Shown: positions 6,136 through 29,540, counted from the first letter of the stretch. The stretch is 32,541 nt of DNA from Barthelona sp. PCE (GCA_040285745.1 JAUFOR010000001.1:1302001-1334541); one strand, 5' to 3'. The notes: generated by a model not told the origin, from the letters alone. A program made the numbers and translations.

Positions 6136-6516
6136 TTAGTCAGAACGGGCACCACACTTACCACAAGCGTAACGAACGGGAGTTTTCTTCTTGTGGTTAG
6201 CCATGTAGACACCAGCACCGCACATCTCACATTCGTAAGTTAAACGCTCGACGGAACCATCCTCGTTGACCTTGAAAAGTCTGAGAATACCCATCTTCTC
6301 GTTCTTGTGCTTGTGCTTGTCCTTCTTGGGGGTCTTGTAGACCTTACGCTTGTGCTTCTTCTTACCAGCACCGAGGACGTCCTCGTGAGCGAAGACGGTA
6401 CAACCCTCTTCAATCTGGTTGATAGCAGAACAGTGAATGTCCTCAGCAAGCTTTTGTTTCAACATAGCGGTGGTACAAACGGTGGTACCTTGGTTGGTCT
6501 TCAAGAAAAAACGCAT
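6136..6516 (-). CDS. RPS27A: 40S ribosomal protein S27a (eS31) with a degenerate 50-aa ubiquitin-like leader
   Basis: KKKHKRKVYKTPKKDKHKHK basic tract and C4 zinc finger (CEMCGAGVYMANH...RYACGKCG); strong high-expression codon bias. Confidence 0.95.
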   Translation of the reverse strand: MRFFLKTNQGTTVCTTAMLKQKLAEDIHCSAINQIEEGCTVFAHEDVLGAGKKKHKRKVYKTPKKDKHKHKNEKMGILRLFKVNEDGSVERLTYECEMCGAGVYMANHKKKTPVRYACGKCGARSD

Positions 6517-6819: not shown

Positions 6820-7467
6820 ATGTCTAGAATTGGTATTTCCATGATTACTGATGCCGTTGAGAACGTCTTCGCCAACATCGAAGAGTCTAAGCGTAACTTC
6901 AAGCAGACCATTGAGATTCAGATCGGTCTCAAGGGTTACGGCAAGAAGGACAAGCGTTTCAACTCCGTTGTCGAAGTTCCTCACGCCACCCGTAAGGTTA
7001 CTAAGTTCTGTGTTCTTGGTGATGCTTCCCACATTCAACAAGCTGAGCAATTGGGTTACGAGCTCCGTTCTGTTGATGACCTCAAGGGTCTCAACAAGGA
7101 GAAGAAGCTGGTTAAGAAGTTAGCTAAGTCTTATCACTTTTTCCTTGCTTCCCCTACTGTTGCTCGTACTCTCAACCGTCTTGTTGGTAACACCTTCAAC
7201 AAATTGGGTAAGTTCCCCACTCCCGTTTTGAAGGGTGAGTCCCTCGAGAAGAAGGCTGAATCTGGTTGCTGTACTATCCGTTTCAAGCTTCAGAAGGCCT
7301 TTGCTTTTAACTACGCTATTGGTCACGAGGAGATGCCTATTGAGGAGATTGTTCGTAACATTGCTACTTCTCTTGGTTTCCTCATCTCTCTTCTTAAGAA
7401 GGGTATGCAGAACCTTGGTTCTGTCCACGTCAAGGGTACTATGTGCTCCCCTGTCCGTCTCTACTAA
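6820..7467 (+). CDS. RPL10A: 60S ribosomal protein L10a (uL1)
   Basis: 215 aa; KRNFKQTIEIQIGLKGY..KDKRF, CVLGDASH, LNKEKKLVKKLAKSY, LGKFPT and VKGTM motifs typical of L10a. Confidence 0.97.
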   Translation: MSRIGISMITDAVENVFANIEESKRNFKQTIEIQIGLKGYGKKDKRFNSVVEVPHATRKVTKFCVLGDASHIQQAEQLGYELRSVDDLKGLNKEKKLVKKLAKSYHFFLASPTVARTLNRLVGNTFNKLGKFPTPVLKGESLEKKAESGCCTIRFKLQKAFAFNYAIGHEEMPIEEIVRNIATSLGFLISLLKKGMQNLGSVHVKGTMCSPVRLY

Positions 7468-7470
7468 ATA

Positions 7471-7590
7471 GGATGTGTTTTCGTCTGTACAAGACGTTTT
7501 TACCAATACTCACTGCGAAAGCCTGGTTGTTTTTTAAGCAATGAGAGTGATTACAAAGTATTGGGAGTTAAGTACAGTTGAAACTCATCT
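7471..7590 (+). promoter_or_regulatory. Structured 3'-UTR RNA element of RPL10A carrying a uL1-binding-site mimic
   Basis: Nested helices: 7471-7481/7580-7590 (one U-U mismatch), CUGUAC/GUACAG (7485-90/7572-77), GAC/GUU (7493-95/7567-69), CCAAUACU/AGUAUUGG (7503-10/7557-64), CACU/AGUG (7511-14/7546-49), plus a GC-GAAA-GC tetraloop. G-U wobbles favour the + strand. Confidence 0.7.
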
Positions 7591-7625
7591 TTTAAGTAAA
7601 TTTTGCTATGCATGTGCTGTTTTTA

Positions 7626-9125
7626 TTATTTAAATCGATCAAAGATTGATGTATTTGCTTCATCTTTCTCTTTACGCTCTTGCTTCTCTAATTTCTGCAA
7701 CTCATATTCAAGACGTTCACGTGTTGTATCCCTTACAAGAGCCTTCTTTCTGATCAATTTCTTTAGCTGTGTTTGACGACCACGTCCCTTACGCTTATTC
7801 TGACGACGGACACGCTTTTCCTTATCTTCTTCAGTCTCTTTGCTAATAACATTGAGAGTATTTTGAAGTCGCATTAGTTCTTCATGTCTCTTCATCTGTC
7901 GTTCATCGCTGTGGATCATACCAACCATACTCTCAAGACCAATCATGTCTGCTGGTATCTTTTCAAGTAATTTCTTCACCTCCATTTCTTTTCTTAATTT
8001 CTTTGTTGCAAATGGGTTGGCAACATAACCATCAAAGTTAGCTTGGCCAGCTCCGGGGATGGCCAAGCTCTGGAAACCAGAATTGTGACCAATGCCAAGG
8101 AAATCTTCATAAGGACAAAAGCGAGCACCACTAATAATATTTCCTGGTATTTGATGTGACATATACGTGGAATGACCGCAATCTCTGGCCGATGATGTAG
8201 TAAAAACGTTCTGCTTAACTTCTAATGTGTGTCTTGCAGCCAGTGCTAATAATCCAGTTTGCGATATATCAACTGAAGTAACCGGTCGATGATGTTTCCA
8301 CGAGTCCATAACCTCAAACTTGCGAAGATCAGAGACGGCAACTTCCCTATTACTAGACACTGTGACAAGGTATTTCCCATCATGTGATACACAGAGGTCA
8401 ACAATGCTTGATTTGTGCGCTCTGTACTGTACGAGAGGGTTGCTCGAGCCTGGGGCCCATAAAGAAACAATACCATTTGTATGACCAGCACACATAACAG
8501 CAGTTTTTGGATTTTGACGGAAGCAATTGATTTTACCTCTTCCTGCGTGCTTTGTTGCACTCCATTTCGCCACGAGTTCTCCAGTTGACACGTCCTGCCA
8601 TGCCAGGTTGCCGTCAATACATGATGAACACATCAAGTAGTGCCATGGAAGATATTCAATGTTCTTTGGTTTCTTGTGATGCTTGAGACGATGGATCTCC
8701 AGTCCATCATAGTCGTACAGACATGTGTATTCGTTTGCAACTGCAGCTGCAATAAGAGGTGTGTTGTCTAAAACTCGACAATCAACAATCCTCTTATAAA
8801 TGTGAAATTCAGCAGAAAGCTTAGCATCCTGCCACTCCATGAGAGATATGTGTCCCTTTTCTCCACCGAGCAGTAACAGACGACCATCGTAAGAATAATC
8901 TAAATGATAACTACCGAAATCTAACTCTAGATCCAACATTTTTGCATTTGTTTGCACATCAACATGCTCAGCAATATCAGTTTGCTTGAATTTATAAGTC
9001 TTTTCGAGCCCTTCTGCTTCCAAAGCTCCATAATCTTCAGGAAGCATTAAATTCATATCAATTTTTGGCCTCTCTTGCTTAATACCCTTCTGCTTCCGGG
9101 GATCCTTTGCTTGATGTTTGCCCAT
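7626..9125 (-). CDS. UTP7: U3 snoRNP/SSU processome WD40 protein UTP7 (WDR46/BING4)
   Basis: LLLGGEKGH, EYLPWHYL and GHTNGIVSLWAP WD repeats, and the BING4 C-terminal domain FCPYEDFLGIGH...IPGAGQANFD...NPF...EVKKLLEKIP. Confidence 0.93.
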   Translation of the reverse strand: MGKHQAKDPRKQKGIKQERPKIDMNLMLPEDYGALEAEGLEKTYKFKQTDIAEHVDVQTNAKMLDLELDFGSYHLDYSYDGRLLLLGGEKGHISLMEWQDAKLSAEFHIYKRIVDCRVLDNTPLIAAAVANEYTCLYDYDGLEIHRLKHHKKPKNIEYLPWHYLMCSSCIDGNLAWQDVSTGELVAKWSATKHAGRGKINCFRQNPKTAVMCAGHTNGIVSLWAPGSSNPLVQYRAHKSSIVDLCVSHDGKYLVTVSSNREVAVSDLRKFEVMDSWKHHRPVTSVDISQTGLLALAARHTLEVKQNVFTTSSARDCGHSTYMSHQIPGNIISGARFCPYEDFLGIGHNSGFQSLAIPGAGQANFDGYVANPFATKKLRKEMEVKKLLEKIPADMIGLESMVGMIHSDERQMKRHEELMRLQNTLNVISKETEEDKEKRVRRQNKRKGRGRQTQLKKLIRKKALVRDTTRERLEYELQKLEKQERKEKDEANTSIFDRFK

Positions 9126-18200: not shown

Positions 18201-18451
18201 AAGTGTATGGTATTAAGTATAAGGCACGATTGATCATCACTACAGAACGCATGCAGTGGACATATGATTTGCAGGCTGTTCAACCCTCTTATCGTCCTCC
18301 AAAGGTTGGACCTTCTATTGTTACATCCAACATAACTCAAAATAATCAAGCAAGTGGAAAAAAGAGGAACTTTATGCGCGAGAATATTTCTAAAACTATA
18401 ACTACAACCCGTGAACGATTGAATTCCAAACGTCCAAAGGTGTGGAAGTAG
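9299..18451 (+). CDS. CFAP47: Cilia- and flagella-associated protein 47 (ASH/Hydin-type Ig-fold repeats with a central CH-like region)
   Basis: 3050-aa uninterrupted ORF with repeated 'F G...V G...NxS' ASH-type modules, N-terminal 'LAPGLSLEFSIEY' and C-terminal 'F..SFTP..YG......L.I.T..MQWTY' and 'KKRNFMRENI'. Size and architecture fit CFAP47. Confidence 0.85.
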   Translation: MPSRLLEVPDSIDFRHTSVGEVQTVTFRVRNLSSSSRVVRLKPPKLLQFKLNAQPRLPLAPGLSLEFSIEYHCQNLEELCDEIVIESPLKSRVERFTIPIFTHVPKGNIIIPDSVLFGNIVTGIQVSKEFELFNDGDVSSKCNFLIDVEGVEIVPSSVSLESKERRKITVSVNPEYEGSFRALISCERTNCPNHMLDISYVAFAHEVRITHAGLPLEKLDFGGLFWGQSMIKEVCVQNSSALPIMCDFTVTNKSTIDDDTAESRLTETRMTTFEMQVRENGIPEPVVTPGRFSVQPFSEKIIKINVELPCVGSFVKPLKGHFPCTLKSVPFFSGTGRDSTRFVGESLDQEQHCSVYYTAVSPFIELSDAFLAFRDYSVHQRASQSFKVSNVVAKAIKITIPQQFSFLKFMPSEFILEPLGVTTVKAIFSPNNLLTRQNKNIAVKCSPVDGDEVVFERKLSIQVEASHYSSDVTATRKEHFAKGVSRTIKDFEKFNDVEIVPSLKEKAEIEASMTKDLFRTMNPEDAIRTVKDLKGSRKSTTLNTGVMTWKRKTKMEISEKEDDHNLGYNPLDHLIAPEPILPAVLDQPLVQLQNGQTHSQQKTLRLVHDQTRLYRRKFFKAPSGFMDMNIPSLSGDEISNLIHCDFEYNLGTVVVFTNLKRSFNIKNTSRQVVKVELRYSHIPELQHTLKDNVSGVTQYIPPDETAGFDLDLSFTRMGPLRRKIFVYINNEQVWELLLLGNVREISIQTDKEQLDFSMSVIPEKWWLQKQIITLTNASNSNVKVKWLDEEGCKSGEITPLYDNPNVPVLALPVFPLPNTLPVIPGSKPGHRFFYLEKNEFIIPSSGSIDVMVHFLPGIISEYNEKLILEVVGGKTLSIDCSAKLPDTQLDMSASFINFGTVGVGMSRSRSITITNPTAQPVQYFMNQFTPSNCVRVPDSKRYGTLLPYSSTEIMVEFKSSKKVKLKGKNMLRRRGVLEKKDNGLVKSSSPVDNMTTTASSVRSGKSRRTSRTQDTYNDTASTLSTFSRASKLFEAWNNSVLQFSAIGSGKVHYIALQGEAAVPDITFSTPMVSFENIQVNFVELSELSVKNNAKLPVVLLVDFSKEGFADFDIVAPNNDNIKRVVTDGLSSPYPQFEYEKDAPNPDSFALETYSPTPFAFSTIAPLDPQRVESKVYRISVGPLSTVEFMLEFKPKVACSITTKFPISYPGFSASYLPIPMIKATSEMPSVLLNKGEVNFFNKIVVPPTLKKAIYHEEVILTNTSDHVTRFTAAFENQTTNNPFKLNISSGILAPNTSTSVQVTYWPREVSSSENKIIFIEEGSETIFGAVNVKGVALAPFMRFDPPVVQLPTVPVHDSVTVTVVVEAFGINNGEFEVILPPDQEHFPFEVDYIDGQSITYSTNRIRINITFMPNRPLSFDTRIQAVLHTIEGFAIKESFRLIGMSDIAIINTWPTLATLRDGSFTRLLASTGNLDTVQIPQQMDLTEVMGNVTDLIRPLFPLFCEDTTSVNLFSTCVRYLNIAISKVVLPVDIEAFALSQGRLLLNAVEDLTSKQMSGVAERFRRGIEIPPSVIIENVRKILVCLQSYGCLVNTIKPQYLCSKDVFVEYCTIECLSIFPRNYICPEGTELMLNKYFADHYVQVSVQAYTLIVLQLIRTFLLVKLSKKSILGVVARYADVSPQNVKMVQSQFSGSLSLEESYLIDWCHNIVLTFKENNVKKLPFLKNIKGIHNNNDTFIGALLSEGVMYTLLLYAYCPFLIQSSEFNAMLDLLKEYSKAQGDALSSSTCLIMSPHRRFKMMSLFLEVCTYIGLPSFCDAHQLISEDPRVHIMVLNYLYTVLPPYSSSTPLTFSGEINTSMRQDIELRNPNKRDLFYRVAWFNNNGLFRLTDKMDNSSSSLSRIGSTLSRTRSKSMAKMSLVDKKDVKLDPDSKKLLNLSFFSTFSKDDVATLLFLPVHEDNGGKLVGPIIFTINFKTKPSLPLFTMTQRTPLYQSSATAFDVDMEKLEFLNLFNKDTAEITFSMRVSQKFLTHGEYERVKDNPQRIQNIMSAHAVSATNAPSIQKLIEMYDENDHKKIRNSLIVPLIQTPNLVLKKLRNNSFGFKFCPLFYGVYVIDVLFFNSTVGEFLTRFFLVADLPDKTRGFDFINAFGEHEQIDVISNSLSLQYSNHKIGEAVVEYPIAGQFFDHVFNSDGEKSKSLQYEAYWNNSMFTSADRVSLINRESDPRNVLSFTFKPKGSGLFDGVVLLRSVFDMRVYNVSCMISKDEFIGSMEFTTAVRHPIDQDIPIHNSSDETWQIDCILSDSSMFTISTTMLTIAAGQTSIVKVVYTASKMDQSETDLILKNSSTKETLKYHLIGKTLEPKAEDRFVYKCASGRVLNETLHLNNPYMCNETIVYRVESDIECIGGSSTVSVPANARTIDFHLQIHPKLPGVYNGVLRFVGAGDRTMWYDIEVQSNIGEAIGTLDCVCEVMKTKEVSLQLMNPLDEPITYKINYMGHGLFGPNFLPIAPKSRQELVFYFSPVRTDEFLGRAIFYEESIGEFSYDLQLKAVSKPAQRIPQLITTIGDITCHPQTIKNPLNHSLEMKIVNTNRINFGVSDIEMTMASSIDPLDSITLEAFEEREIYFFYRPSSVRVVEESVITFEAVDSNIDRLEFELRGTGRFPQQGKVVTFESSVGIRQLESIPFRNPFARPIHVRLSLDKSTVFSLEGPSNVTIPPYQLAMIPIIFEPTLKARFTAELHVSDREEDITWTFSLVGIGAFKSIDPSHIIKLNCRAREPLRKEVSLLLPLFYNNATPAVDDINELISYSRRSSHAAMESHKRLRLVFEWDVEPEMKDYLQNILVIEPDNVVAQSNMLNFAIVLDALKPFHARGDLKIMDPQGGYWVFQVEVNVNSPVVDDVIYVPLRIGETSKLSFDLKNVFEEPEPFTAYLTPQSNPCFVVLPTQGTLAGVNDMDGTEFIISFTPEVYGIKYKARLIITTERMQWTYDLQAVQPSYRPPKVGPSIVTSNITQNNQASGKKRNFMRENISKTITTTRERLNSKRPKVWK

Positions 18452-18472
18452 TAAACAATGTAAATTTCTATG

Positions 18473-20350
18473 CTAAAATGATGCATAATCAACGATAATA
18501 CTTGTATCACACATATAATCAACAATATTGAAAATTTGCTCGGAATGTTTCACATGATTTAAATTGCTGAAATCATATTCCATGTAAAGACAGTTGTACT
18601 CTGTGAGATTTTTTGGATAAAAAGTAACATTACTTTTGGATGATAAAAATGGAATAAACTCTGATGAAATACATCCTGTTTCGTACAACAATCGCACTTC
18701 ATTCAATTCTATATTAAAACCATATAACTTTCCATCTACCAACCACATACTTTCGTTAATGAATATATGTGCACTGTCTGAATACTCCAATGATGTACGC
18801 TGAAGTTCTTTACCATCAAACCAAATTATATCTACTGTTCCATCTTGTTCTTCAAGACCTTCATATAAAGCATAATACTCACAATGCTCAATACAAACAT
18901 CTTCATTAAAAATATTAGTGTACAGTGATACGGCATCAATGTCACTGTTATCTCGCTCTAAAGAATAATCTGCTGTAATCACATCAACAGACAACGACAG
19001 TTCATAACGCCACATGTTCTCATTATCTGATACCCACAATACATCACTACAAACACCAATAGCCCAGACTGATGCATCATAATTAATGCTGTAATTGAAC
19101 TCAATCCCGTTACAGAGTGATGTAATAAATACAGTGCTAAAAGTGGAATAGGCAATATATTTTTCATTAAAACACCACAATTTTGTTTTTGAAGATGTTT
19201 GTATTACAAATAGTGGATTTAAATAACTGTCTGTTACCCGAATTTCTTGTTTAACTGTATCAAAGAAAGAAAAAAAAATCATTGCTAATCTGTTCACTTT
19301 CACCTTCATTTTTGGACCAAAATTTGTTCGAATAAACAAAAATGTCTGGGCGTCCTGCGAAAACACGTTCAATAAAAGACTTAAATTGAAAATATTACTT
19401 GCTTTACGATGAAAAACAAGAAATGGTAATAAAAAACTAACATTTGGCTCATGTACTCTCACTCCTGATGAATTAAAAATGAAGTTCAATGTAGAAGTCT
19501 TTTCCAAAGTACAGAAGCCAGATTTTGAAGATGAACTTCGAGGTGACTGAAAAAAAAATTTTCCGTCAGTAGAAGCATACAATGTTTCAATATTTTGAGA
19601 AAATATAGGCACTAAATCACCATATTGAATACCGTGAACACCACTATTTGAAGTAAAAACATATATATCATCCATGTAAACACAGCTTGTAGGAAAAGAT
19701 TTTTCATTCTCACAGAGTAGGGATACTACAAATTGATTATCTAACAATTCACATAAAAATAACGAATATGACCCTTCATCGCGCACACATATTATATCTT
19801 TAGGACTATTAGAATTAACAACTGCAACTGAACAAAAAATATTTTTAGGTAATGATTCAACAATTTGTGACGTAAATTCTCTTGTTACTCTGCAAAAATA
19901 GTGTATACAGTGCAATGGAGTGAAAAAAAAATTTCCCATGAACGAATTGGTGGATAACTTCATTTCATCAAAGTATTGGTGTTTAAGCACATTTGCAAAG
20001 TTAGCTGATATATATTGCAGATCATCAACAGTGTTTAAAGATACGACATCCACCCAATGTCTATAGTCAGTGAATGTGTGTAATTCAATCTTATTTTCCG
20101 TTAACAATGTATAAAACAGGCCTTTTGATCCCGTGAACTTCAATTTTTGCCTAGTAACATCCAAAACAGGATCTTTCTGATCAAGAAAATGGACATCTGG
20201 TAATAAGCCATCTATTTCAACCCTAATTATGCACTCCTCTGCTTTTAACAAGACTGATCCGTAACACGTGCCCAATTTTGAATTCATTGAAAGTGACTGA
20301 AAATCATGGAAAGGTGTTGCAAGTGTAAACAATTTTGGTTCCTCTTCCAT
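18473..20350 (-). CDS. Orphan beta-rich family protein, copy A (~625 aa)
   Basis: Long ORF; probable start at ATG 20350 (MEEEPKLF), which avoids overlap with the opposite gene. Its C-terminus (EQIFNIVDYMCDTS) parallels those of the neighbouring paralogues. Confidence 0.7.
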   Translation of the reverse strand: MEEEPKLFTLATPFHDFQSLSMNSKLGTCYGSVLLKAEECIIRVEIDGLLPDVHFLDQKDPVLDVTRQKLKFTGSKGLFYTLLTENKIELHTFTDYRHWVDVVSLNTVDDLQYISANFANVLKHQYFDEMKLSTNSFMGNFFFTPLHCIHYFCRVTREFTSQIVESLPKNIFCSVAVVNSNSPKDIICVRDEGSYSLFLCELLDNQFVVSLLCENEKSFPTSCVYMDDIYVFTSNSGVHGIQYGDLVPIFSQNIETLYASTDGKFFFQSPRSSSSKSGFCTLEKTSTLNFIFNSSGVRVHEPNVSFLLPFLVFHRKASNIFNLSLLLNVFSQDAQTFLFIRTNFGPKMKVKVNRLAMIFFSFFDTVKQEIRVTDSYLNPLFVIQTSSKTKLWCFNEKYIAYSTFSTVFITSLCNGIEFNYSINYDASVWAIGVCSDVLWVSDNENMWRYELSLSVDVITADYSLERDNSDIDAVSLYTNIFNEDVCIEHCEYYALYEGLEEQDGTVDIIWFDGKELQRTSLEYSDSAHIFINESMWLVDGKLYGFNIELNEVRLLYETGCISSEFIPFLSSKSNVTFYPKNLTEYNCLYMEYDFSNLNHVKHSEQIFNIVDYMCDTSIIVDYASF

Positions 20351-22313: not shown

Positions 22314-22468
22314 TGAAACGCTCACTTCATTTTCATTTTCAATTTGAAAAGGATTTTTGAACAAGTGTATGTTTCTGAAGGATTTTCAGATAAACCTGTT
22401 TTTCCCCAAAAAAATTTGGAGCTGGACTTATCTGAATAATTTGCTTTTTAAATGCTAAGGAAATGGAG

Positions 22469-24637
22469 CTATTCATCATGATAACACTCATGATAATCGG
22501 GCATATGGTACTCAACAACGGAAGCCTCCGCCAGGAACGAAGGAAGGTGAAACCTTTCCACAGTGGGATTAGTTGATTCTGGATCTTCCTCAACGTTGTA
22601 TGTTTTCAACACCATTGTCTTGGTTTCTTCTTCGTAAATAACTTCCTGAACAACGTTATTAGGCATATTTAAGCTGCGAATATCGTTGCCAATATTTGGT
22701 AAAATAGTATTTGAAAAAAATCGCATTTCAATAACGCCATTAACAATGGACACCTTATTAATACCTTGATCCACTTGAATGTACGAATCACCTATGAAAT
22801 TAAAGAAACAGTTACCATCCACTTCACCAACATCTGAATATTTATATATCAAAACGGGTTCCAAAAAATTTCCTGTTGACCAATCTAAACAATGTAAATA
22901 CTGTTCCTCACCATCATTATTGTATTTATATGTAACAAAGAGCTGGTGGTCAGCTGTATCTGTTAATGGATGATGACAGAAGACTATACTCGAAACATCA
23001 TCGCCATGATGAAAAGTGATGTGCTTTTGAACCTCAACATCATTATTATTGATCAGCAATTGCAAAAAATGTGTTGAATTAATACAACTAACACACACAT
23101 AATTTCCAGTGACTGAAGGCATGCAATTATTTATGTACTCATTTGGTGGAAGCTCCAATACTTTTGTTCTACCAAGATAACCTTGACAAACGTTTTCATT
23201 GTGCTCAACAAAAAATGGTAACCCAAGAACTAAGCCAATATAATTCATGCCATCATTTTCAAAAGAAGTTATTATTGGTTTTGATTCTGAGCCTTCCCAG
23301 TGTATTTTAACTATTTCTGAAGCACCTGGTCTTGCATAACACTGTGCAATCATAAAGAAATACTCTTCCTCAACCGGGTGCATCGATAGTTCTCTGTAAT
23401 TCTTTCCGAACATGAAACTATCGTTAGTCATAACACTTTTATGTGTGACGATTCTTTTTTCTTTGAAGTAAAAGTAACACTGTCTTTTCATACTGCTGTC
23501 TGCAAAATGTGCTGTCCCATCATACATAACTCTGTGAGGCCTAATATTTTGCAATCGAATCACCTCGTTATTGACTTTTCTAAACTTTATAGGACCAAAA
23601 ACACCCGTTGCATTACAAGTTCCTAAAAACTGGCATTGTTCATTATGAAAAGAATTCGCCAAGTCAAGGTGCTTTATATTATCAAATTGAATATATGCAC
23701 TGCCTAAATCACCAGTTGTCGACTTAAGCTCCCCGTTTTCAATATGAACAACAGTACAAATAGAGCTATTATAGAAAAGCGCAGAAAATTCATCTTGTGT
23801 CAATGTGAACAAGGAAAAACAAGAACAGTAAGATATTTTCAACTCTAGTAACTGTGGGAATCTTTCCAATAGGTCAACACGGTTTCGTTTACGGTCAAAA
23901 ATGATCAATTCTTCAAATCCTCTGCCAAATGAGGCAAAACAAACACATTCAGCATTGTCACATCCAATACAGCTTTGATTATGGACACCTTCTAGCTGTA
24001 CGATATCCGGCTCATGAGCCTCGTCCATATCATCTACGCAGAAATTGTAGTGGAATAACGAAAAACCATTTTCATAATTGCTCATTAATACATATTCAAT
24101 GGAACAATTGCTGTTGGTGGTGTAATGGTTGTATTCTCCAAGGCACCGGTACCGTTCTGTTAGAATATTGAGAATGTAACAATGAGTCGATTCTCCATTC
24201 TGGTGATCTTCATCAACCTCTGTAATAGCAAAAAAAATGTGGTTTTCATCTAATGGAACAAATTCGCTCGATACATAGTTTTCTAAATCATCCAAATCAT
24301 CAATAGGGAAACGAATCTTTCTGTTTGTGTGTTCATCACTGTTAATTTCGTTGAAATACAGGATTTCAAGATCAGTTAATCGATTATTTTCGCTAAAATG
24401 CTGTTCAACGATCATATATCCTGCTCCAGCTTTTCGCTTGTAATAATACTGAAGTGTTTCACACGTTTCTTCAACATATCCACAAAATTCTTCCCCATCA
24501 ACAGCATCAATGAGATTGTGTAAATGAGTGTCTTCTCTAGTTTTGACCATTCTAACACCCTGACCTTCAAAAATAATTTGCCCCTCGGGAAAGGCCCCGA
24601 TGATAAGGTCATCCTCGAATTTACGGATACGAGGCAT
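22469..24637 (-). CDS. Orphan beta-rich family protein, copy C (722 aa)
   Basis: Long ORF, collinear with copy D (shared VDDMDEAHEPDI, GSESKPI, LDWSTG.FLEPVL and a near-identical C-terminus). Confidence 0.85.
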   Translation of the reverse strand: MPRIRKFEDDLIIGAFPEGQIIFEGQGVRMVKTREDTHLHNLIDAVDGEEFCGYVEETCETLQYYYKRKAGAGYMIVEQHFSENNRLTDLEILYFNEINSDEHTNRKIRFPIDDLDDLENYVSSEFVPLDENHIFFAITEVDEDHQNGESTHCYILNILTERYRCLGEYNHYTTNSNCSIEYVLMSNYENGFSLFHYNFCVDDMDEAHEPDIVQLEGVHNQSCIGCDNAECVCFASFGRGFEELIIFDRKRNRVDLLERFPQLLELKISYCSCFSLFTLTQDEFSALFYNSSICTVVHIENGELKSTTGDLGSAYIQFDNIKHLDLANSFHNEQCQFLGTCNATGVFGPIKFRKVNNEVIRLQNIRPHRVMYDGTAHFADSSMKRQCYFYFKEKRIVTHKSVMTNDSFMFGKNYRELSMHPVEEEYFFMIAQCYARPGASEIVKIHWEGSESKPIITSFENDGMNYIGLVLGLPFFVEHNENVCQGYLGRTKVLELPPNEYINNCMPSVTGNYVCVSCINSTHFLQLLINNNDVEVQKHITFHHGDDVSSIVFCHHPLTDTADHQLFVTYKYNNDGEEQYLHCLDWSTGNFLEPVLIYKYSDVGEVDGNCFFNFIGDSYIQVDQGINKVSIVNGVIEMRFFSNTILPNIGNDIRSLNMPNNVVQEVIYEEETKTMVLKTYNVEEDPESTNPTVERFHLPSFLAEASVVEYHMPDYHECYHDE

Positions 24638-25591: not shown

Positions 25592-27682
25592 TCAACAACA
25601 TTGTTCATGATAATCGGGCATGTGGTACTCAACGATGGAAGCCTCCGCCAGGAACGATGGAAGGTGGAACGATTCCACTGTGGGATTGATCGATTCCGGG
25701 TCTTCCTCAATATTGTAAGTTTTCAGCACCATTGTTTTGGTCTCTTCTTCGTATGACATGTCTTGAATAGTGTTATTGAGCAGATTTTGATCGTGGCTTA
25801 TGTTCAATTCATATGGTAAACTGTTGTTTGTGAAAAAAAGTGTTTCAATTGCACCATCTTCAACGTATACTTTAATGATACCACCCCTCACGTGTATGTA
25901 TGAATCTCCCACGAAATCAATGAAATTGTTGCCTTCCTGCGTTCCATCATCATATGATCTCTTCCAAAGAAGAACAGGCTCTAAGAAGCTTCCTGTTGAC
26001 CAATCTAAACAGTATAAATGTTGCGTGTTTGCTCCACAGGGCGAATGTAGAACAAACAGCTGATGATCAGGTGTTTCAGCCAATGGACGAGGGTTAAAGA
26101 AAACATCACAATATCCAGGTTCAAAAACAATGTGCTTTTGAACCTCCACGTCATACCCGTTGACATTGAACCGAAAAAAATGGAATGTATCTCTACACAG
26201 AATGCATGCTGAATTATCAAAATGTGAACAATGAACACTTTCAACATGAATATTCGGTGGAAATTCCAAAATCATCTTTTCTCCCAAATATACCAGACCA
26301 CGGTCAACATTTAATGGCAACCCTTGAATGAAATCACGGTTTTCAGAGCCACAATGAGGCAAAATGGTTGTGATTGGCTTGGATTCTGAGCCGGTCCAGA
26401 ATAATTTGCCATATGTCTTTGTTTCACCACGGTCCTCTGCCATTACAATAAAATCACCCCCTTCATTTGGATGAACTGATCGGATCACGTAGTTCGTACG
26501 TGAAATCTTATTATACTTACGCAGCACAATAAGCTTCCTTTCTTTGAAAAAAAAGTAACAACTTATTGAAGCGTTATGACCATACACTTCTGCTATACCA
26601 TCAAAAAAGATGTCTGATGGCTGAAGACTGTTCAAACGCAAAACCTCATTATCAACTGTTCTGAATTTGATTGGGCCATAATGTCCTGTTATTTTGTCAA
26701 CGCCATAAAAAACACAATTTTCATCACGAAAGGAATTATCGTTCAAGTCTATATGTTCCAAGTCATCGCAGTGTACATTCTTAAAATTCATTTCACCCTT
26801 TGACATCTTCAATTCACCGTTTTCGATATGAACTACCACATATCTTGAACCAATAAGTAGCATTGACAAAACATCTTGAGTGAGCGTCAATAATGCAAAT
26901 TTTGAGTCTCTGTCAATATTCAATCCTTTAAGCTGTGGAAATCTTTCTGTCAAGTTAACTTGGTTCCTCTGAGCATCAAATATTATTAGTTCACCAACTT
27001 TATATCCGTCAAAGCCAACAAAACAAGTGCAATCCGAGTTTAAACACCCAAAGTATCTTGAAGGGATATCACGCAACTGCTCAATATCAGGTTCATGTGC
27101 CTCGTCCATGTCATCAACAGAAAAATTGTAATGCCATATGGAATTATCTTGGCAATTCCTCAACAAAATGTAGTTTGAATTGATGTTTGATTCAATTAAG
27201 TCATAAGCTCCAAGATATCTATATTCCTCGGTTAGCACATTTAATATGTAGCACAGAAGCACTTGCCTGTTATTAACAGTTTCATCAATGGTGAATAGTA
27301 GGTGGTTTTCATCCAACGGAACTATTTCGCTTGATAGACTCTTAATCATCAGAAATGGAAAGGGTACTATTCTTCTTGTATGTTCATCACTCATGATATG
27401 ATCAAATAATAAGATATCAAAATGAGCTAAAAAGTTATTATCATCAAAAAGCTGTTCGATGATCATGTAAGATTCTCCAGCTTTTAATTTGGATGTGTAT
27501 TGAAGAGGCTTACGCGTATCCTCCACATATCCAACAAAGTCCTTGCCTTCAATGGCGCTTTCAATGAGGCTGATGTTTTCTCTTGATGAAAGCAATCTTA
27601 GACCCTTGCCCTCAAATATCAGCTGACCCTCGGGATATGCCTTCATTACAAGGTCATCCTCGAATTTACGAACCCTGGGCAT
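25592..27682 (-). CDS. Orphan beta-rich family protein, copy D (696 aa)
   Basis: Long ORF, paralogue of copy C. The ~60 bp upstream also share motifs (AATATAT, GCTATCT, TTCAT[C/T]AC[G/A]GC, TATATG). Confidence 0.85.
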   Translation of the reverse strand: MPRVRKFEDDLVMKAYPEGQLIFEGKGLRLLSSRENISLIESAIEGKDFVGYVEDTRKPLQYTSKLKAGESYMIIEQLFDDNNFLAHFDILLFDHIMSDEHTRRIVPFPFLMIKSLSSEIVPLDENHLLFTIDETVNNRQVLLCYILNVLTEEYRYLGAYDLIESNINSNYILLRNCQDNSIWHYNFSVDDMDEAHEPDIEQLRDIPSRYFGCLNSDCTCFVGFDGYKVGELIIFDAQRNQVNLTERFPQLKGLNIDRDSKFALLTLTQDVLSMLLIGSRYVVVHIENGELKMSKGEMNFKNVHCDDLEHIDLNDNSFRDENCVFYGVDKITGHYGPIKFRTVDNEVLRLNSLQPSDIFFDGIAEVYGHNASISCYFFFKERKLIVLRKYNKISRTNYVIRSVHPNEGGDFIVMAEDRGETKTYGKLFWTGSESKPITTILPHCGSENRDFIQGLPLNVDRGLVYLGEKMILEFPPNIHVESVHCSHFDNSACILCRDTFHFFRFNVNGYDVEVQKHIVFEPGYCDVFFNPRPLAETPDHQLFVLHSPCGANTQHLYCLDWSTGSFLEPVLLWKRSYDDGTQEGNNFIDFVGDSYIHVRGGIIKVYVEDGAIETLFFTNNSLPYELNISHDQNLLNNTIQDMSYEEETKTMVLKTYNIEEDPESINPTVESFHLPSFLAEASIVEYHMPDYHEQCC

Positions 27683-29412
27683 ATATAGCTGTAATGAAGT
27701 AGGTGAATATTAAGATAGCTTGCATATATTAAATATTAGTGCTTGCACGTGGCATATAAAGATGATATAATACACGTGAAGCGTAAACAGAAAGCGCGAA
27801 TGTGAAACAGGACTGCATTCGAATTTCTATCCCCTCACAGATTTATTGATGTGGTTCGCAGGGCTTGTAGCGCGTGACACGTAAGATTGTTGGCACGTGT
27901 AGGCATTGGCTTGGTTGTGGGGCACTTTTTAGCTGCGTTGTGGGTACGGCTCGCGTCTTTTGGGACATGCTCCATTGCACATGCATAAGCATTCAGTAAA
28001 CACCGCTGCATGCGTCGCTGGACCGCGCCAAAACTTCTGTTTCCAAATTTTCAGCCTAATTCTCATCAGATTTTCCTGATTTACACAATGCCAACCGTAA
28101 AGCGCGAACGTGAGGACGATGATATCGACGTCCAAACGCCTTTTGAGTTTGTGCTGGATTGAACCACTGTTTTGGTGGCATTACGAAAGTCATGATGCCA
28201 ATCTTGTCCAACGATTCCAATTTTGGTGACATATAGGAAGAGATCCGGTTGCTGACAGGATGTTCGACTGATGTATGTTTGTTGAAAGAGACGAAGGTTT
28301 AAAAATTGAATAATAAGAGGGAGAATCAAAATTCTATTTTTTATCCAAGGTATCGTTTCAAATGGATGTACGATATGGATGCTTCATAAGAATATTGTAC
28401 AACTGCATATGCTTACAAATCACTAATTTTCAGATTTGTATTTAATCACTCAGAGAGTATCACTCAGAGAATGTTGTGTTTTAATGTTTTCTATTTCTTT
28501 ATGTGGAATCGGGATATTGAGACATTCCATATGTTTTTGCAGTATCCCAGTGACACAATGCCTCTCATCATTGATTTGCATCATCATGGACAGTGAATAA
28601 TGAGAATAACTTGATGGTAATTATGAATATGCACTGCAGCAGTGGAATCAACGTTTGCTGAGACCATAGCGTTGGTACAGTGTGACCCCAGCGTTGTCTT
28701 ATATCGATAATAAATGCGTGAATATTAAGTTTGAACTTTTTTGAAAACAGAAATGAAAGCATTCTTTTGTCATGACTGGTTGGAGCAGCATTTTGAATTC
28801 TTTTGAGTAAGCATATTACCGTGTTATGCATGCGCTCATCCGTTGTAAGCCTGGCATAACGCGGTGCATACAGAGATACAGTAGCAGGTTCATGCATGCG
28901 GCATCTCTGGCTATTTGAATGTGTTGTGCAATTGGTTAGTATGTGCTTATAAGTGGTGCAGCTCTGGTATAGCAATAAATTTGAGCTCAAAAGAAGAAAA
29001 AAATGTTGCACGCACCTGCAATGCTCTGTGCGTATTTACGTCGTGATGGGGTTGATATACATTGATATGTATTGCAGCGTGTAGCAGGACTGCGAGTGGA
29101 ATCTTAATGGAAAAAAAGATACGTTTTTTCTCGGCGCTGCGTGGCTATTTTCTCATTTCAATCAAGTTTAGTGTTAGTATATGTGCTTCTTATGCGTGGA
29201 GACCAATTTTGATTGAGAGCGCGAATTCTTAAGAGGAGAAATGAGCTCTTAGAAATTCCCAACTAGAAAGTTACCCCTAATAAGTCTGCTAATAAATTGA
29301 GAGAAATGCTACCGTGGAAATTTGGTTTTGCTGATATTTTTATTAGTATTTAGTGTGAGTTGAGTTTTGGAAACTATTAACACGATACATCATAGATGTG
29401 ATATATACAATA

Positions 29413-29540
29413 GTAGTAAATAGTTTATTAATTTTCGAGCAAGCTGTCCCGGATTCTCGTATGTACTGTTCCTTGGTAGTAAATAGTTTATTAATTTTCG
29501 AGCAAGCTGTCCCGGATTCTCGTATGTACTGTTCCTTGGT
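29413..29540. repeat. Perfect tandem duplication of a 63-bp unit at the retrotransposon 3' end
   Basis: GTAGTAAATAGTTTATTAATTTTCGAGCAAGCTGTCCCGGATTCTCGTATGTACTGTTCCTTG at 29413-29475 and 29476-29538. Each unit contains AATAAA on the minus strand. Confidence 0.95.

Follow-up and report, generated by a model that had tools for sequence, protein, structure and literature searches.

The RPL10A gene of Barthelona sp. PCE, which encodes ribosomal protein uL1, is followed 3 nt past its stop codon by a 120-nt segment that can fold back on itself, and the question raised by this locus is whether that segment is a binding site through which uL1 regulates its own mRNA. That ribosomal proteins can regulate their own synthesis by rRNA mimicry is textbook knowledge for bacteria; to our knowledge only a few eukaryotic cases exist. 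An initial annotation of the locus had read the segment as a mimic of the L1 stalk with the strand order permuted, and we analysed it here within a window, by which we mean the whole stretch of 32,541 nt that contains it. All descriptors and patterns used below were written after the candidate had been seen, and the descriptor counts within the window are accordingly indicative only.

The window is gene-dense, AT-rich and apparently intronless eukaryotic DNA (GC 0.28-0.45). The features on either side of the segment are the following:

6820-7467 (+): RPL10A/uL1 coding sequence, 215 aa, intronless, with a TAA stop; PF00687, 94 homologues.
7595-7600 (+): AGTAAA, a possible poly(A) signal whose function has not been shown, 5 nt past the hairpin.
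7626-9125 (-): convergent gene of 499 aa, from the ORF list, which bounds the 158-nt spacer after RPL10A.

Pfam assigns PF00687 to the product of 6820-7467 and thus identifies it as uL1/RPL10A, encoded without introns, as the initial annotation had it. Its end branch in a quick tree measures 4.18 against a median of 0.17, which marks the protein as very divergent; the nearest of its homologues at E <=1e-3 is 52% identical, and no close relative was found in the sequence collections. In an alignment of 16 uL1 proteins it ends in ...VRLY, as its relatives do. This common end point led us to reject a reading in which the TAA stop is read through. At the position where 15 of 15 aligned relatives carry the Gly of a conserved T-M-G triad, which we take to contact RNA, the window protein has Cys.

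The leader before the RPL10A ATG is very short, AT-rich and unstructured. Elsewhere in the window one pair of convergent genes (18451/18473) is 21 nt apart and two tandem spacers measure 81 and 99 nt, which suggests, from gene layout alone, that UTRs in the window are short, a point against an RPL10A mRNA that reaches 7590. No clear poly(A)-signal consensus was found at the ten gene ends of the window where one was sought, and AGTAAA or TGTAAA lies downstream of two of the nine other gene ends inspected. The AGTAAA 5 nt downstream of the stem may matter, and a terminating ribosome would need to open the base of the stem, 3 nt past the stop; the relevance of either point is untested.

Folded without constraint, positions 7471-7590 of the + strand form a single long hairpin of -35.6 kcal/mol (RNAfold minimum free energy structure, MFE). 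This reproduces the nested stem with an asymmetric loop, beginning 3 nt past the stop, that the initial annotation had described, and the letters and positions it had given for GAC, GTTTTTA, CCA, TGG, GA, GTT and AGTAAA proved exact. From 5' to 3' the parts of the hairpin are:

7471-7490 (+): lower stem, 5' arm, the open-end continuation of P2, beginning 3 nt after the stop (MFE).
7493-7495 (+): P2, 3'-type strand GAC, C7495 pairing with G7567 (MFE and pair probabilities).
7496-7502 (+): J2-1 loop GTTTTTA, 7 nt with G first and A last, counterpart of rRNA loop B (unpaired in the MFE; unpaired probability 0.74-1.0).
7503-7510 (+): P1, 3'-type strand CCAATACT, counterpart of H77, with CCA at 7503-7505 (MFE and pair probabilities).
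7511-7556 (+): apical extension capping P1, 46 nt (MFE), variable in length and sequence in related elements.
7557-7564 (+): P1, 5'-type strand AGTATTGG, with TGG at 7562-7564 (MFE and pair probabilities).
7565-7566 (+): J1-2 dinucleotide GA, the middle of GGGAG (unpaired in the MFE; unpaired probability 0.66 and 0.78).
7567-7569 (+): P2, 5'-type strand GTT (MFE and pair probabilities).
7572-7590 (+): lower stem, 3' arm (MFE and pair probabilities).

The comparison with shuffled controls that the initial annotation had asked for came out in favour of a real structure: 200 dinucleotide shuffles of 7471-7590 averaged -23.3 kcal/mol (sd 3.3; z -3.72), and none was as stable. The opposite strand gives a z of only -2.25, with 5 of 200 shuffles as stable, and because it folds less well the fold must depend on G-U pairs of the + strand. 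It is therefore both stable and strand-specific. The complete 158-nt spacer gives a z of -2.47 (4 of 200 shuffles as stable), and this spacer has the lowest energy per nucleotide, -0.247 kcal/mol, among the window spacers shorter than 200 nt (ten spacers in all). Another convergent spacer, 22314-22468 (155 nt), reaches -0.205 kcal/mol per nt, and a third, of 21 nt, contains no hairpin. In four sequence contexts of 133-501 nt, pair probabilities were 0.99-1.0 in P1 (0.86 for its last pair), 0.95-0.99 in P2 and 0.98-1.0 for six pairs of the lower stem (7485-7490/7572-7577). P1 has 8 bp; P2 has only 3, one of them G-U, before a 2x2 A/A loop, and is accordingly weak.

The resemblance to uL1 sites lies in the internal loop between P1 and P2. 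We took the consensus for such sites from the text of the papers cited and from E. coli sequences, numbering E. coli 23S rRNA from its annotated start. In that rRNA, GGTGG at 2120-2124 pairs with CCACC at 2174-2178; GA comes next, the following helix opens with GGC and closes with GCC at 2161, and a 12-nt strand, GACCTTGAAATA, then completes the core GGTGG-GA-GGC ... GCC-GACCTTGAAATA-CCACC. We take the helices around 2120-2178 to be H77 and H78, with loop B. The part of PMC5689012 available to us, in which the uL1 site comprises P1 (H77), P2 (H78) and two joining strands, agrees with these names. Parsed by us with the guidance of the accessible text of PMC3616713 and PMC7732827, the E. coli rplK leader reads GGG-GA-GCCTC ... 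GAGGC-GTTATTA-CCC, and the window loop, written in rRNA polarity, reads TGG-GA-GTT .. GAC-GTTTTTA-CCA. The rRNA core that the initial annotation had quoted, UGGGAG ... C-G(N)n-UACCA, is present in E. coli 23S rRNA, and its statement that bacterial L1 mRNA operators mimic this core is matched by the rplK leader.

As far as the available portions of the sources go, an L1 mRNA site is a stem of 6-12 bp that has an internal bulge, an A left unpaired and perhaps a G-A pair, and it is low in information content (PMC3616713); GGGAG is the core that all known Rpl1 sites conserve, and a GGGAG-type core has been found by mutation to be needed for yeast RPL1B feedback (PMC7732827). The window supplies this core as TGGGAG at 7562-7567, with GG paired, GA unpaired and G7567 paired to C7495 in both the MFE and the ensemble, and it supplies the opposite strand of an operator, a P2-closing C, a loop running from G to A and then the CC of P1, as GAC-GTTTTTA-CCA at 7493-7505. 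It does not keep the native strand order, in which P1 is open and P2 capped: P1 is capped in the window and P2 forms the open end, with loop polarity still the same. Nor does it lie in a 5' leader, since it begins past the RPL10A stop, and the 5' flank of the window RPL10A holds no descriptor match.

Set beside E. coli 23S H77/H78 and loop B, the window element has the same polarity and the same junction letters (TGG-GA-G / C-G(N)nA-CCA), the three junction-proximal pairs of H77 (C-G, C-G, A-U) are identical in its P1, and the closing C of H78 corresponds to C7495. In the rRNA, however, H77 is open toward H76 and H78 is capped, whereas the window has P1 capped and P2 leading toward the RNA ends; loop B has 12 nt rather than 7, and P2 is GC-rich in both the 23S and rplK sites, unlike the 3 bp before an A/A loop seen here. 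The rplK-rplA (L11-operon) leader, from an operon that includes the uL1 gene, is likewise a small stem with an internal loop. It has GGGAG in common with the window, its joining strand GTTATTA is also 7 nt long and identical to GTTTTTA in six of seven letters, and the last C of its P2 hairpin corresponds to C7495; it differs in being an operator of native order upstream of the rplK start, whereas the window element is permuted, follows a stop codon and belongs to a eukaryote. The one topological difference from the known sites is which helix is capped, that is, a circular permutation. Two helices enclose the motif, which is an internal loop, and we infer from this that permutation would leave its local geometry unchanged.

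Regulation from a structured 3' UTR also has a reported counterpart among ribosomal protein genes: yeast RPS28B is said to carry a 3' UTR decay element that acts via Edc3, although both the protein and the RNA are different. The remaining comparisons rest on sources available to us in part. L1 bound at the rplK leader inhibits translation of L11 and L1 (PMC3616713). The operator of the archaeal MvaL1 operon (Methanococcus) is an rRNA mimic with two helices and two joining strands, bound via domain I of L1 (PMC2175363, PMC5689012); it differs from the window element as a 5' operator in native order. The yeast RPL1B element lies in a eukaryotic uL1 gene described as intronless, as ours is, and has a GGGAG-type core, GGAAG; excess Rpl1 represses RPL1B through this core, with direct binding by EMSA (Roy et al. 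2020, PMC7732827), from the 5' UTR rather than the 3' flank. The metazoan L10ARE, in intron 3 of rpl-1/RPL10A, mediates autoregulation of a eukaryotic gene of this family (Takei et al. 2016, PMC4937301) and agrees with what the initial annotation had said of splicing-based control in nematodes; it works through alternative splicing and NMD, whereas the window RPL10A has no intron, and its sequence and structure are, per its authors, unrelated to the L1 stalk (PMC4937301).

How readily could such a loop arise by chance? Our loose descriptor accepts either strand order within a span of 140 nt and asks for 3 bp or more in P1 and in P2, the G-C pairs, GA and G(N)3-12A. Counted on both strands, it matches the window 14 times and is not enriched, since shuffled windows average 15.3 and 15.7 matches. 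Only the candidate among these 14 is formed in the local MFE structure, compared with three realised matches in 60 shuffled windows, or 0.05 per window (65 kb), and arithmetic from this shuffle rate implies a chance of about 2e-4 of an MFE-realised motif in the flanks of RPL10A (some 300 nt). ACCA.{6,120}TGGGAG, our plain pattern, matches the + strand once in 32.5 kb, at the candidate, and the - strand twice. The Rfam search proposed by the initial annotation lent no support: Rfam 15 returned nothing on the hairpin at gathering score or at E <=10, and no match anywhere in the window at gathering score, although it was not established that Rfam contains an L1-leader model. At E <=10 the window has two weak Rfam matches only, at 7639-7704 (-), inside the neighbouring gene. 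ARAGORN found no tRNA on the hairpin, no C/D or H/ACA boxes were seen in it by eye, and it is not repeated in the window beyond one 30-nt, 80% match at chance level.

Because no close relative of the window uL1 was found, distant metagenome loci had to take the place of covariation within the lineage. With the alignment of 16 uL1 proteins we retrieved RPL10A loci from metagenome contigs, 80 in total; identity to the query runs from 39 to 49%, the match is unbroken in every case, and 71 loci have a 3' flank of at least 150 nt. A listing of loose matches contained several loci with the permuted arrangement 79-175 nt past the stop, and simpler patterns were therefore tested. One of them, A-C followed by a hairpin with 5 or more uninterrupted bp and then GG-GAG, has a sense-strand match in the 3' flank of 16 of the 80 loci, against 2 for the antisense 3' flank, 1 for the 5' flank, 0 for the antisense 5' flank and 1 for the CDS. 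ACCA.{6,120}TGGGAG is found on the sense strand of 18 of the 80 3' flanks (21.1 kb in all) and, among the controls, in 1 (antisense 3'), 2 (5'), 1 (antisense 5'), 3 (CDS) and 3 (antisense CDS). These 18 loci correspond to 0.85 matches per kb. Distal sequence, taken as 125 kb lying over 300 nt away from the gene, has a rate of 0.064 per kb (Poisson P ~1e-14 against the distal rate), and shuffled 3' flanks carry the pattern in a mean of 1.0 locus (maximum 6 in 200 shuffles). By contrast, the native rRNA order TGGGAG...ACCA is enriched in no region (3' flanks, 2/80), and 5' UTR sites of the yeast type remain at control level (permuted in 2/80 loci, native in 4/80).

As far as sequence comparison can establish it, then, the loop recurs behind RPL10A in a gene-, strand- and position-specific manner relative to flank, CDS and distal controls; the 3' UTRs of other ribosomal protein genes were not compared. 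The conservation in relatives that the initial annotation had made a condition of its proposal is thus found at a distance, and in the permuted order it had described. The loose descriptor combined with the MFE test singles out only one of the 80 loci (L058), and is too strict here because P2 is often a local hairpin. Rfam at E <=1 places nothing on the elements of ten related loci. In one locus (L006), below-threshold matches resembling C/D snoRNAs lie 140-350 nt downstream of RPL10A.

The window was also searched with a model that had not seen it. R1 is a covariance model of six P1 pairs and their flanks, built without the window from 11 loci whose short P1 hairpins align cleanly at both ends (alignment A2). 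Searched against both strands of the window (65 kb) with filters off, it gave 8 matches at E <=10, of which the best was the candidate (7498-7569, +, 17.5 bits, E 0.084 by rough calibration) and the next scored 11.1 bits; at window scale this E-value is marginal. Over 81 sources (182.5 kb, both strands, default filters), all 15 matches at E <=10 fall in 3' flanks of RPL10A and on the sense strand, and four come from three loci outside the training set (L027, 20.8 bits; L060, 19.8 and 15 bits; L072, 13.8 bits); the window match is lost to the default filters in that run. The first three P1 pairs are invariant C-G, C-G and A-U in all 15 matches, and because they never vary these core pairs cannot show covariation. 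The fourth pair is A-U in 13 matches and C-G in 2, and 85.6% of all cells are paired against 77.0% in shuffles, none of 500 reaching the observed value, in an alignment that was fitted to the model and leans toward it.

We define the class, for this analysis, as A-CCA...TGG-GA-G elements in the 3' flank of RPL10A. The window qualifies by position, with its core at +26 to +102 past the stop where members, required to lie in sense orientation within 300 nt, range from +23 to +257; by its 8-bp P1, since members need a capped P1 that begins with C-G, C-G and A-U and stands between a 5' A and a 3' GAG; and by being the top match (filters off) of a model trained without it. In other loci ACCA and TGGGAG delimit a span of 24 to 122 nt. 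A local P2 hairpin of at least 5 bp that starts exactly at the G after GA is found in 10 of the 18 loci; shuffles average 2.5, with none of 1000 reaching 10, and the offset controls have 0-3 of 16-18. We adopted the 5-bp threshold because one of 4 bp is uninformative (12/18 against a shuffle mean of 6.9 and maximum of 13). P2 stem sequences differ across lineages, and the alignment of P2 hairpins (A4) was left-justified by MAFFT and is unusable for pair counts. In the window, as in L040 and L006, the G after GA pairs instead 5' of the joining strand, in a closing stem; the joining strand of L040 also has 7 nt, with G first and A last, and in L025 and L033 the closing stem has one or two pairs at most. 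Local-hairpin and closing-stem P2 may be two sub-types or two drawings of one fold. Unconstrained MFE structures realise the constrained motif in L006, L025, L056, L062, L063, L070 and the window.

Two close relatives, L016 and L017, show which parts of an element change. Its stems and flanks are identical between them and both loops differ, and the first ~40 nt past the stop have diverged, including an 18-nt indel; both loci have AATAAA ~47 nt past the P2 hairpin. In nine element-bearing contigs, seven measuring 1.0-1.1 kb and the longest 1.9 kb, the element is internal and the 5' flank is only 12-95 nt, dimensions that suggest transcripts without proving it. On a quick tree, for which the careful search was unfinished and support is SH-aLRT only, element-bearing loci occupy about nine separate places: the Pyramimonas group (the protein of L062 is 90-91% identical to Pyramimonas entries); a second chlorophyte group with L032, L038 and L070; L033, near Tetraselmis; a strongly supported group with L006, L044, L060 and L063; L016 with L017; L027 with L035, near the basidiomycete anchor; and L025, L040 and L056, each on a long branch. 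The plain-pattern element is absent from three well-supported groups of 7 to 11 loci (7; 11; a 10-row clade), and L058 and L065, the sister pair to the 10-row clade, have only a CCCA/TGGG variant. The distribution of the class is wide but patchy, and an ancient origin with losses is not distinguishable from repeated invention.

Several other explanations of the hairpin have to be weighed against feedback by uL1. It is unlikely, though it deserves to be kept in view, that uL1 binds the element without negative feedback, so that the hairpin would hold or capture new uL1 near the mRNA, serve mRNA targeting, or couple uL1 supply to 3'-end processing at AGTAAA. All of the evidence for a uL1 site applies equally to such a role, and the 3' position is unlike that of the characterised operators, all of which lie before or near the start codon in the available text of PMC3616713 and PMC7732827. 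Because the element is in 3' UTR position, a classic block of initiation cannot apply directly. Feedback from a 3' UTR is nevertheless feasible, given the reported RPS28B decay element. Moreover, the characterised uL1-mRNA interactions are all repressive, to the extent covered by the accessible parts of the reports on bacteria and archaea (PMC5689012, PMC3616713), yeast (PMC7732827) and nematodes (PMC4937301). We find it distinctly unlikely that the likeness to uL1 sites is coincidental and that the hairpin serves the boundary between convergent genes in some general structural capacity, for instance as a transcription stop, a 3'-end signal or a barrier to read-through. It does take up most of its convergent spacer, the 155-nt convergent spacer also folds fairly well, and the loose motif is common by chance; but MFE realisation singles out the candidate well above the shuffle rate, the 21-nt convergent spacer manages without a hairpin, and the motif recurs specifically behind RPL10A elsewhere, including loci with a different or unknown layout of neighbours.

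That same recurrence of the loop core would be left unexplained by a separate small RNA gene beside RPL10A, a miRNA-like precursor or a snoRNA, which we regard as very improbable. The hairpin is long, stable and of the size of a pre-miRNA, and the snoRNA-like matches downstream of RPL10A in L006 could be counted in favour, but Rfam (at E <=10), the tRNA search, inspection for C/D and H/ACA boxes and the lack of repetition in the window all fail to support such a gene. Hardly more credible is pure chance, a functionless inverted repeat with an accidental GGGAG/ACCA loop. The candidate was picked post hoc, with descriptors written after it was seen, and the L1 site carries little information, as noted in the available part of PMC3616713; against this stand the z-score of the fold, the low expected frequency of a realised motif beside RPL10A, and the first rank given to the candidate by the independently trained R1.

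We therefore return to the uL1-binding feedback element in the 3' UTR of its own mRNA as the explanation that we hold to be probable, if only moderately so; its inclusion in the mRNA, its binding by uL1 and the repressive direction of the outcome are all inferred. Against this reading weigh the short spacers elsewhere in the window, the weak P2, the lack of enrichment of the loose descriptor, the marginal E-value of R1, the invariance of the core pairs, the absence of an Rfam match and the Cys in the window uL1. Under this hypothesis the internal loop would copy the two-helix junction of LSU rRNA (H77, GA, H78, loop B) that uL1 recognises, and free uL1 would bind the hairpin at 7471-7590. When uL1 is in excess of free rRNA sites it would bind the mRNA instead and lower its stability, its translation or its 3'-end formation. 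We favour negative feedback because every characterised uL1-mRNA interaction is repressive and because a 3' UTR route suits an intronless gene with a very short leader. Feedback by uL1 does not in itself require a mimic, because the metazoan L10a element, on the evidence of the accessible text of PMC4937301, is unrelated to the L1 stalk. The element would belong to a class of RPL10A 3' flanks spread over many eukaryotic lineages. Whether that class amounts to an ancient or repeatedly evolved, eukaryote-wide 3' UTR sensor for free uL1, a circularly permuted H77/H78 junction placed after the RPL10A stop in green algae, fungus-like lineages, several unplaced protists and this divergent flagellate, is a proposition for which we see the arguments as evenly balanced; binding is again inferred.

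We found no description of a 3' UTR uL1 site in the literature, including fungal and plant structured-RNA surveys, as far as these sources were accessible; supplements, figures and most subscription journals lay outside the search, so prior description is not excluded. The eukaryotic uL1 cases that we found in print, within the same limits, are the yeast 5' UTR site and the non-mimic metazoan intron element, and the element is probably a feedback sensor of a kind so far undescribed at the 3' position. If our interpretation is true, the autoregulation of ribosomal proteins by rRNA mimicry known from bacteria would persist in eukaryotes at the opposite end of the mRNA, acting through decay, termination/recycling or 3'-end formation and not by a block of initiation, and the principle of the rRNA mimic would be widespread among eukaryotes. 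It would pose the new question of how a protein bound past the stop codon lowers expression, and would offer for it a small and testable RNA-protein pair whose structural homologues are known. For an organism without an intron in RPL10A, it would provide a route of feedback that is free of splicing.

An element built on the core A-CCA...TGG-GA-G is found in the 3' flanks of 18 of the 80 distant RPL10A loci taken from metagenome contigs (L002-L081), representing about nine lineages, green algae among them. It lies 23-257 nt downstream of the RPL10A stop codon, and its parts follow one order: A-CCA, a capped hairpin, TGG-GA-G and usually a second hairpin.

In three chlorophyte-like loci (L032 at 2254-2300, and the same region of L038 and L070), about 25 nt located 3' of the P2 hairpin, the local H78-like helix, are identical. 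This stretch could pair with 7 nt located 5' of the joining strand, the loop strand that precedes CCA; such pairing would produce a three-way junction in which the RNA ends enter by way of this same strand, the loop-B counterpart. At another locus, L006, two matches resembling C/D-box snoRNAs (27-32 bits, below the gathering score) occupy 2291-2502, 140-350 nt 3' of RPL10A.

Within the window, residues 207-209 of the encoded uL1 (7441-7449) read T-M-C, versus T-M-G in 15 of 15 aligned relatives, a triad that contacts RNA. A 30-nt segment that includes the TGGGAG side of the window's own element (7554-7583) shares 80% identity with a segment inside a coding region (19969-19998), a likeness that is probably due to chance. 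The divergently placed neighbour of RPL10A (6136-6516, minus strand) resembles a ubiquitin-like/S27a fusion whose N-terminal half is highly diverged; the 3' flank of this neighbour lacks a uL1-type motif. Further along, convergent ORFs encoding proteins of 3050 and 640 aa are separated by only 21 nt (18449-18475), such that their 3' UTRs must be either very short or overlapping with the opposite gene.

Two tandem paralogous genes, at 22469-24637 (722 aa) and 25592-27682 (696 aa), lie on the minus strand; their repeat segments are 72-83% identical and spaced ~3.0-3.1 kb apart. The two genes are followed by 885 nt without an ORF of at least 100 aa (27683-28567), whose plus-strand folding energy, -0.277 kcal/mol per nt, is the lowest among all window spacers; Rfam yielded no match in this interval at gathering score. 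A 63-nt unit is perfectly duplicated in tandem at 29413-29538.

Variant cores also occur in RPL10A loci, CCCA/TGGG in L058 and L065 and CCGT/ACGG in L074 and L076, and these may raise the tally above 18. The element recurs in RPL10A 3' flanks and has apparently not been described before.
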